Source: Desulfobulbus propionicus DSM 2032
GTDB lineage: Bacteria > Desulfobacterota > Desulfobulbia > Desulfobulbales > Desulfobulbaceae
DNA length: 32,000 bases
NCBI RefSeq assembly: GCF_000186885.1
Contig: NC_014972.1
Span: forward strand, 2,550,001-2,582,000
Direction of reading: 5' to 3'
Positions 25,275 through 31,644 of the stretch are shown here, in pieces. Each line of letters starts with the position of its first letter. The first letter of the stretch is position 1. The notes beneath the pieces are model-generated. The model was not told the DNA's origin. It was given only the letters and a program-made list of their open reading frames with translations, and did not search any database. The translations under genes were made by a program, and so were the position numbers.

Positions 25275-25302
25275 TCGTTGAATTTTAGACATCATTCAAC
25301 GA
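25275..25302 (-). other. Inverted repeat at the 3' end of the AT-rich orphan gene
   Basis: TCGTTGAAT (25275-25283) and ATTCAACGA (25294-25302) form 9 bp with a 10-nt loop. It spans the stop codon (25292-25294). No U-tract follows on the minus strand. Confidence 0.4.
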
Positions 25303-25669
25303 TCTGATTTTTTCTTGTGACAAAAGTGCGCTGTAGCTTTTTCTTGAGGTATTCAAGGTATTCCATTCCTTCGCTTGTCAATTCCCAAATACCTCTTCCT
25401 GATTGTTCAGCTGATTTGACATAACCATGGTGTTGTTTGGCTCTTTCTTTTGCCCATGCAACATCATGTTTCCATCGCGGTACGTTGTTTGCTACTTTTT
25501 CATGATATACAGGATCAGAGAATTCTTTTTTTAGCAGTTCGTACATTTTGCCATCGACTTCGGATTTCAACACTTTATTCCCCATTGATCCAATTGCCAG
25601 TATAAGTATAGGGATCAAGTCATCTTGAGATAAATTTTTCCCTTTTAACAATTTCCTGACAAGATCCAT
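25292..25669 (-). CDS. Small stand-alone winged-helix protein resembling the Mrr N-terminal (Mrr_N) DNA-binding domain; compositionally foreign
   Basis: 125 aa. VPRWKHDVAWAKERAKQHHGYVKSAEQSGRGIWELTSEGMEYL follows the pattern of the Mrr_N wing/recognition region (W..v.WA...l...G.i.....rG.W.lT..G). A/T-ending codons dominate, unlike all neighbours. The GAGG SD overlaps the stop of the upstream gene. Confidence 0.6.
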   Translation of the reverse strand: MDLVRKLLKGKNLSQDDLIPILILAIGSMGNKVLKSEVDGKMYELLKKEFSDPVYHEKVANNVPRWKHDVAWAKERAKQHHGYVKSAEQSGRGIWELTSEGMEYLEYLKKKLQRTFVTRKNQIVE

Positions 25670-25678
25670 GCCCTGCCC

Positions 25679-27559
25679 TCAGAATTCCATGTGAAAGCTG
25701 TAGACACCCTCTTCCAGCTGACTGGTGACCTTGAGGCCGGAATGGTTGAACACGTTCTGCATCCGCTCGTTTTCCCGCAGGACCTCGGCGGTGAAGCCGG
25801 CAATGCCGTTGCGTTTGGCGATCTTGATCAGGTGCTGGAAGAGGAAGGTACCCAGTCCCTTGTTCTGCCAGCCATCGCGGACCACGAAGGCCACCTCGGC
25901 CAGGTTGGTCTTTTCATTGAGGTAGTAGGTGCCGACCGCGATGATCTGTTCGCCATGCGCCTCGGGCACAGTGCCCACCACGGCCACGTCGCGGCGGTGG
26001 TCGATATAGACGAAATCCTGGATCTGGCGCGGGGTGAAGCGCTGCTGCCGGCTCATGAAGCGGTAATAGATGGTCTCCTGGCTGAGGTTGTAGATCAGGT
26101 CGCGCATGTGGGGCTCGTCGGTGGGCTTGATCGAACGGAAATCGATCTCGGTGCCGTCCTCCATGAGGAAGGTGGCGCGGATCGATTCCTCCACCGGAAT
26201 CATGAACCGATTGCCGAAACGGGCCAGGTCGGGCCGCAGGTACTTGGCCGCCACCGCCTCGCGGAACAGCTGCTCGCGGAAATCCGGATGGGCAATCGAA
26301 ATCAGGGCCATGACCCGCTCGGCGATCGACTTGCCGTGCAGATAGGCCACGCCGTATTCGGTGACCACGTAGTGGACGCTGGCCCGGTTGATGACCACCC
26401 CCGAACCGGGTTGCAGGGTGCAGACGATGCGCGAGGCATCGCCCTCCCTGTTCAACGACGGCAGGGTGATGATCGCCCGGCCGCTCTCCGCCTTGGCCGC
26501 GCCGCGATTGAAGTCGATCTGGCCGCCGATGCCCGAATAAAAGCGGCCGCCCACCGAATCCGAGCAGACCTGGCCGGTGAGGTCGATCTCCAGGGCCATG
26601 TTGACCGCCACCATCCGCTTGTGCTTGCCGATGACGTTGGCGTCGTTGATGTATTCGGTGGGCCGGAAGCTGAACAGCGGGTTGTCGTGGATGTAGTCGT
26701 AAAGCTTCTTGGTGCCCATGCAGAAACTGGCGGTGATCTTGCCCTTGTCGATGGTCTTCATCGCCCCTGTCACGGCCCCGGATTCGATCAGGGGGATGAT
26801 GGTGTCGGAGATCATCTCGGTGTGGAAGCCGATATCCTTGCGATCATGCAGAAATTCCATCACCACCTGGGGAATGCGGCCATAGCCCGGAACCCGACCG
26901 AGCCCCAATTCGATGGTCGAGCCGTTAGGAATCAGGGCAGCGGCGGTCTGGGCGATCTTGCGGCTGATCGGGTTGGGCGGATCAATGGCCCGCTCCAGGA
27001 TCGGCCGGTCCACCGGCACCAGGATATCGAGATCAAAGACATCGACCAGGGTATCGCCGTGAGTCCAGGGCATGTTGGGGTTGACCTCGGCGATCACCAG
27101 CGAGGCGTTCTCGGTGGCGCTGCGGACGATGTCCACCGAAATGCCCAGGCTGACCCGGCCACGGGTGTCGGGCGGGGTCACCTGGATCAGGGCCACGTCG
27201 ATGGGCAGGCTGCCGGAGTCGAACAGCTTGGGTACGTCGGAGAGCAGGATCGGGGTGTAGTCGCCAAATCCTTCCTGGATGACGTCGCGGATGTTGGAGC
27301 TGATGAAAAAGGCGTTGATGGCGAAACTGTCGGCCATCTTCTTGTCGGCGTAGGGGGCGTCGCCCTTGGTGATCAGCTGGATGATCTCGACGTTGGTCAG
27401 CGAGCGGGCCCGCTGGGTCATGGCCGCGATCAGCTCCTGGGGCGCGCCGCAGCCGGTGCCGATGAACACCCGCTGGCCGGCCTTGAGGTGGCTGAGGGAC
27501 TGGGCCGGGGTGGCGATCATGTCACTGTATTTTTCCTGCCAGTTGTGTTCGTATTCCAT
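25679..27559 (-). CDS. Fusion protein: acetyl-CoA hydrolase/CoA-transferase (AbfT/Cat1-like) plus a C-terminal Pat-type GNAT acetyltransferase
   Basis: 626 aa. Residues 1 to about 440 are the CoA-transferase fold (GTGCGAPQ, GFHTEMISD with the catalytic-Glu context, SGIGGQIDF). Residues about 465-626 (nt about 25682-26167) are the GNAT, with IKPTDEPHMRDLIYNLSQETIYYRF and the acetyl-CoA loop WQNKGLGT. By my recollection this aligns block by block with the C-terminal GNAT of Salmonella Pat. Confidence 0.9.
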   Translation of the reverse strand: MEYEHNWQEKYSDMIATPAQSLSHLKAGQRVFIGTGCGAPQELIAAMTQRARSLTNVEIIQLITKGDAPYADKKMADSFAINAFFISSNIRDVIQEGFGDYTPILLSDVPKLFDSGSLPIDVALIQVTPPDTRGRVSLGISVDIVRSATENASLVIAEVNPNMPWTHGDTLVDVFDLDILVPVDRPILERAIDPPNPISRKIAQTAAALIPNGSTIELGLGRVPGYGRIPQVVMEFLHDRKDIGFHTEMISDTIIPLIESGAVTGAMKTIDKGKITASFCMGTKKLYDYIHDNPLFSFRPTEYINDANVIGKHKRMVAVNMALEIDLTGQVCSDSVGGRFYSGIGGQIDFNRGAAKAESGRAIITLPSLNREGDASRIVCTLQPGSGVVINRASVHYVVTEYGVAYLHGKSIAERVMALISIAHPDFREQLFREAVAAKYLRPDLARFGNRFMIPVEESIRATFLMEDGTEIDFRSIKPTDEPHMRDLIYNLSQETIYYRFMSRQQRFTPRQIQDFVYIDHRRDVAVVGTVPEAHGEQIIAVGTYYLNEKTNLAEVAFVVRDGWQNKGLGTFLFQHLIKIAKRNGIAGFTAEVLRENERMQNVFNHSGLKVTSQLEEGVYSFHMEF

Positions 27560-27601: not shown

Positions 27602-29722
27602 TTAGAGACCGGCCAACGGCCGGGCAAAGGTCATACGGGCGTCGGCCACCACCGGTTCGTTGCCGATCTCGCCGACAATCAGGGGATTGATGTCCAGTTC
27701 GACGATCTGGGGAAAATCGGTGGTCAGCTGGCTGATCCGTTGCAGAGACACGGCAATGGCGCTGATGTCCACCTCCTTGAGGCCGCGCTTGCCCTCGAGC
27801 AGCTCGTAGGAGCGGGTCGACTTGAGCATCTGGATGGCCTCGTTCTCGGTGATCGGCGCCAGGTGGAAGGTGACATCCTTCATCACCTCGACGAAGATGC
27901 CGCCCAGACCGAACATCAGCATCGGCCCGAACTGGGGGTCGCGGGTCATACCGATGATCACCTCCAGGCCCTTCTCGGCCATCTTCTCCACATAGACACC
28001 CTCGACAATGGCGTTGGGCGCGTGCTTGTTGATGCGCAGCATCATCAGGTCAAAGGCGTCGGCCACCTCCTGGCTGGAGCCGATGTTGAGCCGCACCCCG
28101 CCCAGATCCGACTTGTGGACGATACTGGGCGAGACGATCTTCATCGCCACCGGAAAGCCGATGAAACGGGCTATCTCCACCGCCTCCTCGAGGCTGGTGG
28201 TCAACCGGCCCTCCATGATGCGGAAGCCGTAGGCCTTGAGAATGTCCTTGGACTTGACCTCGCCCAGCCGGAGCCGGCCGGTGCGCTGGCGGCGGGTGAT
28301 GATCCGCTCCACCCGGCGGCGGTTAACCGGGAAACGGACCACATGGCGAGCCGGCCGTCGTTTCCATTCGCCATACTCGTGCATGGCCTTGAGCGCACCC
28401 ACGGCCCGTTCGGGCGAGTCGTAGAAGGGCAGTCCGGCCGCGGCCAGTTCCTTGCGCGAAGGCATGACGTCCGACCCGCCGAGGAAGGAGGCGAGCACCG
28501 GGGTGGTTTCGTCCATGTGGGCGACAATGGCCCTGACCGTGGCCGCCGGCTGAGTCATGTACTGGGGCGCCAGCACCACCAGGATGGCGTCGATGGAGTC
28601 GTCGGCCACGGCGCTGTCGATGGCGGCGGCATAGTGGCGCGGTTCGGCGTCGGCAGAGATGTCGATCGGGTTGTCGATGAAGGCGGCCGGCGGCAGCTCC
28701 GCCCGCAACCGTGCCACCAGCGAATCGCTCAGCCGGGTGACGCTCAGGCCGGATTTCTCCACCGCGTCGGCGGCCATGGTGCCGGAACCGCCCGAGTTGG
28801 TGATAACCAGCACCCGGTCACCCCGAGGCGTGGGCTGCAGGGCGAGCGCGGTGGCATAGTCGAACAGGGCCTCGAAACTGTCGGCCCGGCAGATGCCGGC
28901 CCGTTTGAAGGCCGCGCCGTAGGCGGTGTCCTTGCCGGCGAGCACGCCGGTGTGATTGGCCGCGGCCTTGGTGCCGGCCACGGTGGTGCCGGCCTTGAGG
29001 ATCACCACCGGTTTGCGGCTGCTGGCTTCCTGGGCTGCCTTGACGAACTTGTCGCCGTCGCTGATGTCTTCCAGATAACCGACAATGACCTTGGTTTCAT
29101 CGTCCTGGGCCAGGGCGGCGAGCACATCGACCTCGGTGATGTCCGCCTTGTTGCCGATGGAGATCGATTTCGACACCCCGAGCTCGCGCTCGTCGGCGAT
29201 GTCCATCATGGCGGTGCACAGGGCCCCGGATTGGGAGAAGATGGCCAGATGGCCGCGCTGGGGAATGCGTTTGGAAAAGGAAGCGTTCAGTTTGATGGCC
29301 GTGTTGATGATGCCCAAGCAGTTGGGGCCCAGGAGCCGCACCCCGCCCCTGCGGCAGATCTCGGTCAGCTCTTCCTCCAGCTTCCGCCCGTGGGGTCCGG
29401 TTTCCTTGAATCCCGAGGCCACCACCACGATGGCGCCGGCCTTTTTCTTGACCGCCTCGCGGGCAGCGGCCGGAACCATCTCCGCCGGGACCGCGATCAC
29501 CACCAAATCCACGGGGTGGGGATAGTCGGCGATGGTGGGGTAGACCTTGAGGCCAAACAGTTCGCCCCCGGCCGAGTTGACCGGCGCGATCGGGCCGGGA
29601 AAACCACTCTTGACCAGATTGCTCACCGTGTCGTAGCCGACCTTGCCCACGGTCTTGGAAGCGCCGATCACCGCGATCGACTCCGGGGAAAACAGTCTAT
29701 CGAGCATGGCCACCTCGTTCAT
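27602..29722 (-). CDS. ADP-forming (NDP-forming) acetyl/acyl-CoA synthetase, fused alpha-beta type
   Basis: 706 aa. CoA-binding N-terminus SIAVIGASKTVGKVG, LGPNCLG, phosphohistidine loop AAANHTGVLAG (His retained), and a C-terminal ATP-grasp (FPVAMKIVSPSIVHKSDLGGVRLN). ATGA overlap with the upstream CBS gene. Confidence 0.92.
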   Translation of the reverse strand: MNEVAMLDRLFSPESIAVIGASKTVGKVGYDTVSNLVKSGFPGPIAPVNSAGGELFGLKVYPTIADYPHPVDLVVIAVPAEMVPAAAREAVKKKAGAIVVVASGFKETGPHGRKLEEELTEICRRGGVRLLGPNCLGIINTAIKLNASFSKRIPQRGHLAIFSQSGALCTAMMDIADERELGVSKSISIGNKADITEVDVLAALAQDDETKVIVGYLEDISDGDKFVKAAQEASSRKPVVILKAGTTVAGTKAAANHTGVLAGKDTAYGAAFKRAGICRADSFEALFDYATALALQPTPRGDRVLVITNSGGSGTMAADAVEKSGLSVTRLSDSLVARLRAELPPAAFIDNPIDISADAEPRHYAAAIDSAVADDSIDAILVVLAPQYMTQPAATVRAIVAHMDETTPVLASFLGGSDVMPSRKELAAAGLPFYDSPERAVGALKAMHEYGEWKRRPARHVVRFPVNRRRVERIITRRQRTGRLRLGEVKSKDILKAYGFRIMEGRLTTSLEEAVEIARFIGFPVAMKIVSPSIVHKSDLGGVRLNIGSSQEVADAFDLMMLRINKHAPNAIVEGVYVEKMAEKGLEVIIGMTRDPQFGPMLMFGLGGIFVEVMKDVTFHLAPITENEAIQMLKSTRSYELLEGKRGLKEVDISAIAVSLQRISQLTTDFPQIVELDINPLIVGEIGNEPVVADARMTFARPLAGL

Positions 29723-30375
29723 GGGGTTTTCTGGGGGACGTGGACCACAAAGCCGTCGGCTTCCAAGGCTTTATGCACCGAACGGACGTTGTAGGTATTG
29801 ATGCGCAGATAGATCATGGCCCGGCGCTTGTCGGTGCCTTCGGCCCGCACCAGGCGGGTAAACTGGACCTGCTTTTCCTCCATGATCCGCACCAGCTTGC
29901 TCAGGGCCTGCGGGTCCTGATTGTCCTCAATCGAGACCAACACCGATCCCTTGGCACCCAGGCCGAACAGGTCGCGGTAGGCGTTCATCAGGTCGGCGGT
30001 GGTGAAGACCCCGACCACCTTTTCCTCCTCGTTGACCACCGGCAGGGCGCCGATCTTGCGCGACTGGAACAGCAGCAGGGCGTCGTCCAGGGTGGCATGG
30101 GGGACAAGGAAGAGGCAATCGCGGGTCATCAGCACGGAAACTGGTGTTTTGTTGACCTTTTCCTCGACCGTTCCCCGTTCTTTGCTCTGGGCCACGGTGG
30201 AAGGCCGGGCCGAACGCAGGTCGCGGTCGGAAAGAATCCCCTGAAGCACGCCCTGTTCATCGACCACCGGCAGGTGGCGGATATTGTAGCGTTGCAGGAT
30301 GTCGATCGCCTCGGCCACGGTCTGCTCCGGAGTAACCGTGACCGGTGACGGTGTCATGTGATCGTGGATGAACAT
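29719..30375 (-). CDS. acuB: AcuB-like CBS-pair plus ACT-like domain protein
   Basis: 218 aa. Two CBS motifs (IRHLPVVDEQGVLQGILSDRDL; IGALPVVNEEEKVVGVFTTADL). The C-terminal segment of about 70 aa (GSVLVSIEDNQDPQALSKLVRIMEEKQVQFTRLV) is ACT-like. Confidence 0.85.
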   Translation of the reverse strand: MFIHDHMTPSPVTVTPEQTVAEAIDILQRYNIRHLPVVDEQGVLQGILSDRDLRSARPSTVAQSKERGTVEEKVNKTPVSVLMTRDCLFLVPHATLDDALLLFQSRKIGALPVVNEEEKVVGVFTTADLMNAYRDLFGLGAKGSVLVSIEDNQDPQALSKLVRIMEEKQVQFTRLVRAEGTDKRRAMIYLRINTYNVRSVHKALEADGFVVHVPQKTP

Positions 30376-30409: not shown

Positions 30410-31375
30410 TCATTCATCGGTCTCCACAAGCCCGGACAAATAGGCTTCAACGCAAACACCAAGTTTTTCAAGAAAATATCCGCCCTCAAGGATCGAGAGC
30501 ACGCGCCCTTGGGTGTAGTCGCGGGCGAGTTCCGTCACAAAGTTGCCCAGCCGCCGATAGAGATCGACGGTGAAGGCCAGGCCCGACATGTCGTCCTGGC
30601 GGTGGGCGTCGAATCCGGCGCCGACGATCAGGGCATCGGGCCGGATGGTGTCGAGAAAATTTCTGATCTTGGGAAAAAGACGCAGTACTTGCTCCGCGCC
30701 GGCGCCGGGGGGCAACGGCAGATTGAGGATGGTGCCCTTGCCGGGACCGACCCCCTTGTCCTCGGCCCAGCCGGTTCCGGGATAGCTGAAGCTGGGATGC
30801 TCGTGAATCGATATATAGGCGGTGTCCGCCTCTTGCTCGAAAGCGGTCTGGATGCCGTTGCCGTGGTGGGCGTCGAAATCGAACACGCACACCCGGCGGC
30901 GGCTGTACTCCTGCTGCCAGTAACGGGCGGCGATCACGCAGTTGTTGAAAAAACAGAATCCATAGGGCTGGTTGGGTTCGGCGTGATGGCCCGGTGGCCG
31001 GGTCTGGCAGAAGACCACCGTTCCCGGCTGGCGCTCGATCCTGTCCACCCCGACCAGGCCGGCACCAGCGGACAGGGTGGCGATGTCAAAGGATTCGTAG
31101 CCCACTTGATTGTCGGGATGGTCGATATAGGTGCGACCGGAGAGCACCGCCTCCTCGAAGCGAAACAACCAGCCCTCGGTATGGAAGGTCAGCAGTTGGG
31201 CACGGGTGGCCGGACGGGGGGCGAAGGTGCGGATGCGCCCGGCCAGGTGTCCCTGCATGAGCCGGTCAGTGATCACCTGCATCCGCTCGGGCGCTTCCGG
31301 ATGATCACCGCCGCCGGTATCGTGCCGGCAAAAAGCGGGGTCGGTGATGAGGGTAATGGCAGGCTCGTTTTCCAT
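30410..31375 (-). CDS. acuC: AcuC/histone-deacetylase-family protein deacetylase
   Basis: About 321 aa from ATG 31375 (the track starts at GTG 31387). RPPGHHA, FDFDAHHGNG, GFDAHRQD and EGGY are the Zn-dependent HDAC/AcuC/APAH signatures. Confidence 0.92.
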   Translation of the reverse strand: MENEPAITLITDPAFCRHDTGGGDHPEAPERMQVITDRLMQGHLAGRIRTFAPRPATRAQLLTFHTEGWLFRFEEAVLSGRTYIDHPDNQVGYESFDIATLSAGAGLVGVDRIERQPGTVVFCQTRPPGHHAEPNQPYGFCFFNNCVIAARYWQQEYSRRRVCVFDFDAHHGNGIQTAFEQEADTAYISIHEHPSFSYPGTGWAEDKGVGPGKGTILNLPLPPGAGAEQVLRLFPKIRNFLDTIRPDALIVGAGFDAHRQDDMSGLAFTVDLYRRLGNFVTELARDYTQGRVLSILEGGYFLEKLGVCVEAYLSGLVETDE

Positions 31376-31644
31376 TGCAAGGTCCACTGATCAGACGGCC
31401 GACCGGCAGCGCTGCGCCTCCGGTGTGACTGTGTCGCTCAACCTTACCGTATTCCTCGACAAAAACGAAGCGTATCTTCGCTTTCCCGCCACAACTTTTT
31501 GCCCAGTCACGGAAAACCCCTCCCGCCACATCGATACAACGCACGCATCACGCGATCAATCCTGCGGTAGCGAACCTTGAGGCACGATGGCGTCTTGCAG
31601 CGTCCTTGCCCCTCCGTCGGCTCTTTTTTTGCTGATTACAGCAG

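Follow-up and report, generated by a model that had tools for sequence, protein, structure and literature searches.

A stretch of 32,000 nucleotides from Desulfobulbus propionicus DSM 2032 (contig NC_014972.1, positions 2,550,001 to 2,582,000 of the forward strand; hereafter the window) encodes a protein in which an N-terminal family-I CoA-transferase is joined to a C-terminal acetyltransferase of the GNAT family and of the Pat type. Judged from its sequence, this fusion is a Pat-like lysine acyltransferase with an N-terminal body that has no place in existing classifications, located in an operon resembling acu, and it is both widespread and unstudied. The three enzyme active sites concerned, those of the transferase, the GNAT and an ADP-forming acyl-CoA synthetase (ACD), are intact; they are encoded in one operon, and the synteny extends across phyla. 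We propose a reversible lysine-acylation module of the acu kind, linked to the ADP-forming synthetase and with the fusion as its writer, a reading to which, taken as a whole, we assign a probability of about 0.55. Probably, it is a form of the bacterial switch by acetylation that acts where acetate and acyl-CoA meet, undescribed and very widespread. Within this proposal, what we infer comprises the acylation of proteins rather than small molecules, the target that is acylated and the way in which the two domains of the fusion are coupled. The architecture was not found described in the full-text literature that was searched, the coverage of which mostly leaves out subscription journals.

The fusion gene

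The fusion is encoded by a single open reading frame (ORF) without internal stop on the minus strand, running from an ATG at window position 27559 to a stop codon at 25679-25681, with an AAGGGG ribosome-binding site 7-12 nt 5' of the ATG. A plus-strand reading of 25679-27559 was rejected, as it is merely a stop-free antisense frame of a GC-rich gene and has no family match. The features of the gene, in window coordinates, are listed below.

25679..27559, minus strand: whole ORF, CoA-transferase::Pat-type GNAT fusion, 626 aa plus stop
26252..27547, minus strand: AbfT-like family-I CoA-transferase domain, residues 5-436 (PF02550 and PF13336, PDB matches to AbfT down to 1e-120, Foldseek)
26879..26896, minus strand: six-residue insertion RVPGYG, residues 222-227 (alignments to AbfTs and fusions)
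26816..26818, minus strand: codon of Glu248, predicted catalytic Glu of the CoA-transferase (aligns to Glu238 of the 3gk7 AbfT)
26510..26527, minus strand: GGQIDF motif, residues 345-350 (conserved with all AbfT structures)
26177..26251, minus strand: interdomain linker, residues 437-461 (AlphaFold2 predicted local distance difference test, pLDDT, below 50 at 446-457)
25694..26176, minus strand: Pat-type GNAT, residues 462-622, including the Pat-specific N-terminal extension IKPTDEP...YYRF (Pfam, NCBIfam, PDB, Foldseek)
25895..25897, minus strand: codon of Glu555, predicted catalytic Glu of the GNAT (aligns with the Glu of PatZ AEFAVLV, SlPatA AEVAFLV and MtPat AEIAFTV)
25850..25867, minus strand: QNKGLG, residues 565-570, Q/R-x-x-G-x-G/A motif for binding the acyl-CoA pyrophosphate (alignments)

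There is a vanishingly small chance that two genes were joined into the fusion by an error of sequencing or assembly or by a frameshift, a concern raised in the sequence-only reading of this DNA. The ORF is uninterrupted, the GC content is even across the domain junction (0.58-0.66) and the genome is one closed contig of 3,851,869 bp. More than 120 database clusters of 624-634 aa, mostly from Desulfobulbus or other Desulfobulbaceae, have 69-95% identity to the fusion over 100% of its length, and some full-length relatives carry the label "bifunctional" in RefSeq. A frameshift or assembly join is excluded because of the uniform GC, the closed contig and these same-length relatives; independent full-length homologues of the same length, hundreds of them, are found in many phyla. 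The peptide strings quoted in that reading are all present, namely GFHTEM at residue 244, IKPTDEP at 477, ETIYYRF at 495, IDHRRD at 519 and AEVAFVVRDGWQNKGLG at 554-570. The AlphaFold2 model of the whole fusion has a pLDDT of 84 and a predicted template modelling score (pTM) of 0.77. A Foldseek search with this model found no solved chain that spans both domains.

The CoA-transferase domain

The N-terminal ~440 residues had been described as a complete family-I CoA-transferase with its catalytic Glu, and this description holds. Both Pfam halves are found, AcetylCoA_hydro (PF02550) at residues 5-173 (1.4e-28) and AcetylCoA_hyd_C (PF13336) at residues 282-435 (2.5e-63), and Glu248 aligns to Glu238 of AbfT. 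Among PDB sequences, residues 6-436 match 4-hydroxybutyrate CoA-transferases (9vag, 9e-120; 3gk7, 4e-97), and in Foldseek the transferase half of the AlphaFold2 model superposes on 2oas and 3gk7 with template modelling (TM) scores of 0.92-0.96. The identity of the domain to solved active AbfTs is 37-41%. On these alignments, the domain is assigned to the AbfT-like branch of the family-I CoA-transferases. Its best NCBIfam model is that of butyryl-CoA:acetate CoA-transferase (TIGR03948), at 289 bits compared to a cut-off of 675, with other models scoring lower; no substrate-specific equivalog cut-off was reached among the NCBIfam models of butyryl-CoA:acetate, succinate and 4-hydroxybutyrate CoA-transferases.

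The Glu that forms the enzyme-CoA thioester is Glu238 in C. aminobutyricum AbfT and Glu249 in RipA. The position of Glu248 is occupied by Glu in 22 of the 24 aligned fusions and in 78 of the 78 scorable loci among the 80 that best match the fusion. The G-x-G-G-Q-x-D-F loop is present as GIGGQIDF (residues 343-350), the GGQIDF positions being conserved in 67-79 of 79 scorable loci. With Glu248 and GGQIDF retained, a transferase devoid of catalytic residues, which had also been considered, is not what the gene encodes, and the retention of Glu248 in all 78 close relatives argues for the transferase probably being an active enzyme. It is noted that the insertion RVPGYG lies 21 residues before Glu248 and is found only in the closest Desulfobulbales relatives (P0045-P0121, L015), being absent from L016, from more distant fusions and from any solved AbfT.

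Not every member of the family has an intact transferase. In two of the 24 aligned fusions (L026 and L032) a catalytically dead transferase, with the Glu changed to Asp or Gln and a degenerate GGQxDF, is combined with an intact GNAT; in the relatives P0174, P0273 and P0274 the transferase Glu is also Asp or Gln and the GGQxDF loop degenerate, with the GNAT Glu retained. It follows that the fold of the transferase can be of use to the GNAT even where it does not catalyse. These relatives would fit a swap of regulatory domains, in which the transferase is non-metabolic and provides an acyl-CoA-binding allosteric and substrate-docking body for the GNAT, as the ACD-like domain does in PatZ. PatZ needs its non-catalytic N-terminal CoA-binding domain for cooperativity and for the Acs pocket, and its activity depends on acetyl-CoA binding there (PMC12184503). 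However, the catalytic Glu, both Gly, the Asp and the Phe of the transferase motif are kept in 76-79 of 78-79 scorable loci, which one would not expect of a pure sensor, and the identity and superposition given above are to AbfTs that are active. We thus regard a purely regulatory transferase as unlikely, although with a real chance of being correct. In the clade of the window protein, the transferase appears to be under selection as an enzyme.

The Pat-type GNAT domain

In the sequence-only reading, the C-terminal domain was compared with the GNAT of Salmonella Pat. The blocks quoted there (ILPEDEP, YYRYF, IDYDREMAFVAV and AEFAVLVRSDLKGLGLG) do occur in PatZ, and each of them aligns with its counterpart in the fusion. 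The Pfam GNAT match covers residues 484-621 (2.7e-09), with PF00583 at 526-605. The only PDB sequences matched by residues 462-622 are Pat-group lysine acetyltransferases: the GNAT of Streptomyces lividans PatA (SlPatA, 1e-14), E. coli PatZ (4e-14), M. tuberculosis Pat (MtPat, 2e-10) and M. smegmatis Pat (MsPat). PDB sequence alignment of the GNAT with 4nxy, 9isq and 4ava gave values of 3e-15 to 3e-11, compared to 0.01 for the best unrelated GNAT. Among the GNAT models of NCBIfam, 'acetyltransferase Pat' scores best (3e-22), compared to 1e-4 for RimI. When the modelled C-terminal 232 residues were submitted to Foldseek, ranks 1-8 were taken by PatZ, the SlPatA GNAT, Rv0998 and MsPat (6e-14 to 9e-9), and generic GNATs enter the list at 2e-8. 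Sequence, NCBIfam model and Foldseek ranks agree in placing the domain in the Pat-type group, not among generic small-molecule GNATs, and on both sequence and model we assign it there.

The predicted catalytic Glu555 is aligned in all four pairwise alignments and is Glu in 80 of 80 relatives, and the positions of the QNKGLG motif are kept in 76-78 of these 80. The Pat-specific extension FRSIKPTDEP...ETIYYRF (residues 475-501) aligns with PatZ, SlPatA and MtPat, its R475, D481 and R500 being invariant among the aligned fusions. GNATs of the Pat group modify lysines of proteins by acylation, acyl-CoA synthetases being their classic targets. The GNAT of the fusion would be expected to acylate protein lysines rather than small molecules.

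The operon

The fusion is the last of four co-directional minus-strand genes, preceded in order by genes for an HDAC-type deacetylase, an AcuB homologue and the ADP-forming synthetase. The intergenic gaps are 34, -4 and 42 bp, and there is no terminator-like site between synthetase and fusion. The three upstream genes are as follows.

30410..31387, minus strand: HDAC-family deacetylase (Zn-dependent) of 325 aa, which opens the operon (PF00850, 1.6e-78)
29719..30375, minus strand: AcuB homologue of 218 aa with a CBS pair and a C-terminal domain, its end overlapping the synthetase start by 4 nt (Pfam CBS)
27602..29722, minus strand: ADP-forming acyl-CoA synthetase, fused alpha-beta, 706 aa (Pfam, NCBIfam, PDB 8wzu at 2e-152)

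The structure closest to the synthetase is the ADP-forming 4-hydroxybutyrate-CoA ligase 8wzu (2e-152). The synthetase retains His257 (NHTGVLAG) and His536 (HKSD), the two phosphohistidine positions of ACD enzymes such as those of P. furiosus and Ca. Korarchaeum. The AcuB homologue matches the Geobacillus and Bacillus AcuB structures over its full length (7e-25), and in the PDB the deacetylase is best matched by the catalytic domains of HDAC6, by bacterial HDAH and by a lysine deacylase.

The sequence-only reading held that a CoA-transferase stands in the fusion instead of the NDP-forming synthetase-like domain usual for Pat. As a description of the N-terminus, which is PF02550 plus PF13336, this is correct. 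As a statement of replacement it is not: a 706-aa synthetase with both His residues is encoded 42 bp upstream, the pairing with a synthetase is conserved across phyla and a type I Pat of the classical kind is present in the genome as well, which means that no replacement has taken place. In a comparison of 67 partner synthetases, seven lysines reach a conservation of 85% or more, among them K27 of the CoA-binding loop and K537 beside His536. When these were considered as candidate target lysines, no site was singled out, most of them being also conserved in the non-partner paralogue.

The deacetylase invites a different interpretation of the operon, in which the GNAT would be a small-molecule N-acetyltransferase acting on an amine, polyamine or amino acid, the HDAC-type enzyme the matching amidohydrolase, and the operon not one of protein regulation. 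The HDAC family does include acetylpolyamine amidohydrolases (3men, 2.6e-35), and a pyridoxal phosphate (PLP)-dependent decarboxylase, the product of which would be an amine, precedes a distant fusion paralogue in L018 and L022. However, the eight best neighbours of the GNAT in structure and sequence are all protein lysine acetyltransferases (KATs), the scores of small-molecule GNATs being worse by five orders of magnitude or more; the deacetylase resembles HDAC6, HDAH and the lysine deacylase more than it does acetylpolyamine amidohydrolases; and the operon holds a homologue of AcuB, a protein known only as a regulator of protein deacetylase. A small-molecule function is thus very improbable.

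Past the end of the operon, a Lys-rich ORF of 125 aa (25292-25669, minus strand) starts 9 nt past the fusion stop. It has a weak Mrr_N match (5e-06, below the cut-off) and a GC content of 0.37-0.39, compared to ~0.61 in its flanks. No homologue was found in loci L013-L032, and in L014, a relative of the same family, uvrB directly follows the fusion. The ORF resembles an insertion of foreign DNA that separates the operon from uvrB.

Distribution of the fusion

Among 301 evenly sampled Desulfobacterota genomes, 192 have a match to the fusion, and ~110 (over a third; counted from the table of matches) have a best match of E <= 1e-144, the range in which each listed match spans nearly all 626 residues. 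Several of these genomes have two to four or more copies. Three CoA-transferase::GNAT paralogues are arranged in tandem in the Desulfobacterota genome G187 (L030:7974-13719, plus strand), and two copies are adjacent in G247.

For a view across phyla, species-representative genomes were scanned with a junction query made of the transferase end, the linker and the GNAT, and the best 80 of at least 600 matches were used. All 80 span the junction, and they come from Thermodesulfobacteriota, Planctomycetota, Verrucomicrobiota, Lentisphaerota, Actinomycetota, Myxococcota, Acidobacteriota, Nitrospirota, Chloroflexota, Thermotogota, Deinococcota, Bipolaricaulota, Latescibacterota and Thermoplasmata archaea. 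Beyond Desulfobacterota, the fusion occurs in at least 12 phyla, archaea included. The 150 representatives of 50%-identity clusters that are nearest to the GNAT alone comprise 56 proteins of CoA-transferase-GNAT architecture, 6 of GNAT-ACD architecture (type II Pat) and 1 of ACD-GNAT architecture, the remainder being GNAT-only or fragments.

Larger architectures also occur. Searching proteins of >1096 aa revealed a natural CoA-transferase-GNAT-HDAC triple fusion (P0274, 1103 aa) and a protein in which patatin and another domain precede CoA-transferase-GNAT (P0273, 1101 aa); in P0174 (960 aa), an N-terminus of 333 aa without assigned family precedes CoA-transferase-GNAT. The triple fusion P0274 thereby gives Rosetta-stone support to the pairing of writer and eraser. 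No natural ACD-CoA-transferase-GNAT triple fusion was present among proteins of 1097-3130 aa, an absence that counts as weak evidence.

Conservation of the gene context

The full four-gene order recurs in three of the genomes compared from the order Desulfobulbales. A synthetase homologue lies within +/-6 kb of the fusion in 65 of the 80 best loci, mostly directly upstream on the same strand and in seven cases downstream. These ACD-paired loci come from Desulfobacterota, Planctomycetota, Verrucomicrobiota, Actinomycetota, Acidobacteriota, Myxococcota, Chloroflexota, Thermotogota and others. An HDAC homologue is found in ~32 of the 80, often directly after the fusion. When 20 loci were instead sampled evenly across the phylum, the synthetase was adjacent to the fusion in 6. 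In the partner synthetases, His257 is kept in 61 of 62 and His536 in 63 of 65; this conservation pattern points to purifying selection on the active sites of transferase, GNAT and ACD alike.

A FastTree phylogeny of 99 fusions, the support values of which are approximate, contains one clade, made up of 65 fusions and with a local support of 99, to which the window protein belongs; 62 of its members have the synthetase next to them. In a second clade, the synthetase is downstream or an AMP-forming Acs is nearby, and the remaining clades have diverse neighbours. The classic Pat target is AMP-forming acetyl-CoA synthetase. Fusion paralogues are found beside it at L023:4819-7974 (minus strand) and L025:10549-12519 (minus strand). 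A DRTGG/AAA_26 protein, similar to the N-terminal domain of phosphotransacetylase, stands beside the fusion in L023 and at L029:12005-13045 (plus strand), and is absent from L025. The neighbourhoods of L023, L025 and L029 represent another acetate-node context. Unlike the synthetase-linked context, two related genomes have a 570-aa PLP-dependent decarboxylase preceding the fusion paralogue (L018:6192-7904 and L022:6193-7905, both plus strand) and a small CBS-pair protein after it on the opposite strand. The neighbours of distant paralogues overall include the PLP decarboxylase, 6PF2K/FBPase-2, MoxR/VWA, a short-chain dehydrogenase/reductase with a thiamine pyrophosphate enzyme, Lgt, an amidase and a cyclic nucleotide-PilZ protein; a comparison of these neighbours found no single conserved partner outside the synthetase-linked clades.

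Other acetylation and CoA-transfer genes of the genome

A homologue of type I Pat, of the classical kind and 889 aa long (555 bits to PatZ; G000:C1:2423479-2426145, plus strand, locus L113), is encoded in this genome too. It keeps the phosphohistidine-loop His (STHIGAMAG) and the HKSD His of true ADP-forming synthetases, and may still function as a synthetase; at the phosphohistidine-loop site, four residues are deleted in E. coli PatZ. The genome also has a second ACD paralogue, two genes with the sirtuin motif GAGIS..SGIP.FR and, ~0.5 Mb from the operon, one AMP-forming Acs with the acetylation motif PKTRSGK. The canonical Pat/sirtuin/Acs circuit thus appears, from these genes, to be complete, and the operon is therefore unlikely to be merely the Acs switch of the organism. 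It would have a job of its own, most simply centred on its own synthetase.

The fusion is the sole PF13336 member of the genome. That it is the only CoA-transferase, and hence the catabolic propionate:acetyl-CoA transferase, does not follow from this, as two PF01144 subunit pairs and one family III enzyme exist.

Proposed function

In the proposed module, the N-terminal 436 residues of the fusion would act as a transferase of the AbfT/Cat2 type, moving CoA between a short-chain acyl-CoA and a carboxylate through a thioester on Glu248, and the C-terminal 165 residues as a Pat-type protein lysine acyltransferase, the writer of the operon. The HDAC-type deacetylase would be the eraser and the AcuB homologue an adenine-nucleotide sensor that gates it; AcuB has been shown experimentally to inhibit the AcuC deacetylase in response to AMP or diadenosine tetraphosphate (Ap4A) (PMC13121692, PMC13039410). 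The ADP-forming synthetase would be the metabolic partner and the likeliest target. By binding or turning over the prevailing acyl-CoA/carboxylate pair, the transferase could set the activity of the tethered GNAT or its supply of donor. The GNAT would then acylate a lysine on the neighbouring synthetase, or possibly on Acs or the fusion itself, and so throttle the ATP-linked interconversion of acyl-CoA and acetate, with the deacetylase reversing the acylation when the energy charge changes.

A more specific coupling can be imagined, in which the transferase uses acetyl-CoA and a free acid to form an acyl-CoA other than acetyl-CoA (propionyl-, butyryl-, 4-hydroxybutyryl-, lactyl- or succinyl-CoA) and passes it to the GNAT, so that the marks would report the abundant acid. 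The E. coli pair YdiF/YiaC is a precedent in trans (PMC9636275), the host is a propionate specialist, the best NCBIfam match of the transferase is butyryl-CoA:acetate CoA-transferase and the flexible 25-residue tether is compatible with a hand-over. However, the score of that match is far below its cut-off (289 compared to 675 bits) and no other specificity model reaches its own; CoA-transferases also release free acyl-CoA, so supply of the donor needs no fusion. We consider channelling of this kind to be rather improbable.

Several points weigh against a writer module tied to the synthetase. The adjacency of ACD and transferase could be purely metabolic, the two forming a cycle that gains ATP from a range of acyl-CoAs, and the GNAT having its role elsewhere. 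In 14 of the 20 evenly sampled loci there is no ACD beside the fusion and the neighbours are diverse, and the counts from the 80 loci should be read with the knowledge that these are the best matches to this query, so that the window protein's own subfamily is over-represented. AcuB is found in just 5 of the 80, all of them Desulfobulbales-like. The deacetylase is of the HDAH/HDAC6 type and not an AcuC orthologue, and enzymes of the HDAC family can also deacetylate polyamines. The interdomain geometry of the AlphaFold2 model cannot be trusted, as the linker has a pLDDT below 50. In the full-text literature, within the coverage stated above, acetylation of ADP-forming synthetases was not found, and the literature yielded no experiment on any member of the fusion family.

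One may tentatively go further, in a proposal that we hold to have clearly less than an even chance. The fusions would be a sixth, so far unrecognised architectural type of KAT, present in >12 phyla and in archaea, with an ancestral job of acylating, and thereby switching, the adjacent ADP-forming synthetase. The active transferase would read or convert the dominant acid/acyl-CoA pair, a propionyl, butyryl or other mark being possible, and synthetase and fusion may together recreate a Pat-like holoenzyme in trans.

The module would come as no surprise to a specialist once seen. The CoA-transferase-bearing architecture is common in anaerobes living on short-chain acids and yet lies outside KAT types I-V. 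To our knowledge, ADP-forming acyl-CoA synthetases are an enzyme class without known acylation control. If the writer module is as proposed, such control would extend from the AMP-forming to the ADP-forming, ATP-yielding synthetases, the writer would be tied directly to an enzyme that interconverts acyl-CoAs, and a natural system would be at hand for studying what makes a cell use an acetyl mark or one of the other acyl groups. The fusion, the synthetase, the AcuB homologue and the deacetylase look soluble and come from a cultivated organism with a closed genome, which makes the proposal directly testable in vitro.

Comparison with known systems

Bacterial KATs have been sorted into types I-V by the domain attached to the GNAT, which may be NDP-forming, cAMP-binding, ACT, NADP-binding or absent (PMC8556138, PMC12184503). 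The fusion fits none of these types, and a CoA-transferase is not mentioned in those classifications (PMC8556138, PMC12184503). Compared to Pat/PatZ (YfiQ) of Salmonella enterica and E. coli (PDB 9isq, 9it0), the fusion has the same GNAT blocks, I/V-x-P-x-DEP, YYR(F/Y), the catalytic Glu and Q/R-x-x-G-x-G, and PatZ is the top structural match of its GNAT (Foldseek, 6e-14). Both proteins consist of a large N-terminal body derived from an acyl-CoA-handling enzyme, followed by the GNAT. The hallmark of type I KATs, an N-terminal NDP-forming synthetase-like domain of ~700 aa in cis, is absent from the fusion. Unlike in PatZ, the N-terminal body is a family-I CoA-transferase that seems catalytically intact, the synthetase is a separate, catalytically intact neighbour gene, and the place of the sirtuin CobB as partner eraser is taken by an enzyme of the Zn-dependent HDAC type.

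The same YxRF and catalytic Glu blocks occur in Streptomyces lividans PatA (type II) and in mycobacterial Pat (type III, regulated by cAMP). In Foldseek alignments, the identity of the fusion GNAT is 27-28% to SlPatA and 23-26% to mycobacterial Pat, so the two are about equally related to it. Their regulatory modules differ from the CoA-transferase of the fusion, being a C-terminal NDP-forming-like domain or a cyclic nucleotide-binding domain.

The acuABC-acsA genes of Bacillus subtilis and Geobacillus follow the same logic, with a GNAT writer, AcuB (CBS-ACT), an HDAC-family eraser and an acyl-CoA synthetase. This gene set is present in the operon, without the small GNAT of the AcuA type and without the AMP-forming AcsA target. 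In place of the small AcuA, the writer is Pat-type and CoA-transferase-fused; the synthetase is ADP-forming and does not have the A10 catalytic lysine targeted by AcuA; the deacetylase is HDAH/HDAC6-like by its best matches; and all four genes are co-directional.

With AbfT/Cat2 (C. aminobutyricum 3gk7, Shewanella 2oas) and Yersinia RipA, the fusion shares the catalytic Glu, GGQxDF, an identity of 37-41% and TM scores of 0.92-0.96. Unlike these enzymes, it bears a linker and GNAT of 190 residues at the C-terminus and the six-residue insertion before the catalytic Glu. In E. coli, lactyl-CoA produced by the CoA-transferase YdiF serves the GNAT YiaC as donor for the lactylation of lysines (PMC9636275). 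The two kinds of enzyme, CoA-transferase and lysine-acylating GNAT, act there in one acylation pathway, although YdiF and YiaC are separate proteins of other subfamilies, the transferase being of the PF01144 type and the GNAT a single domain, with neither synthetase nor HDAC as a partner.

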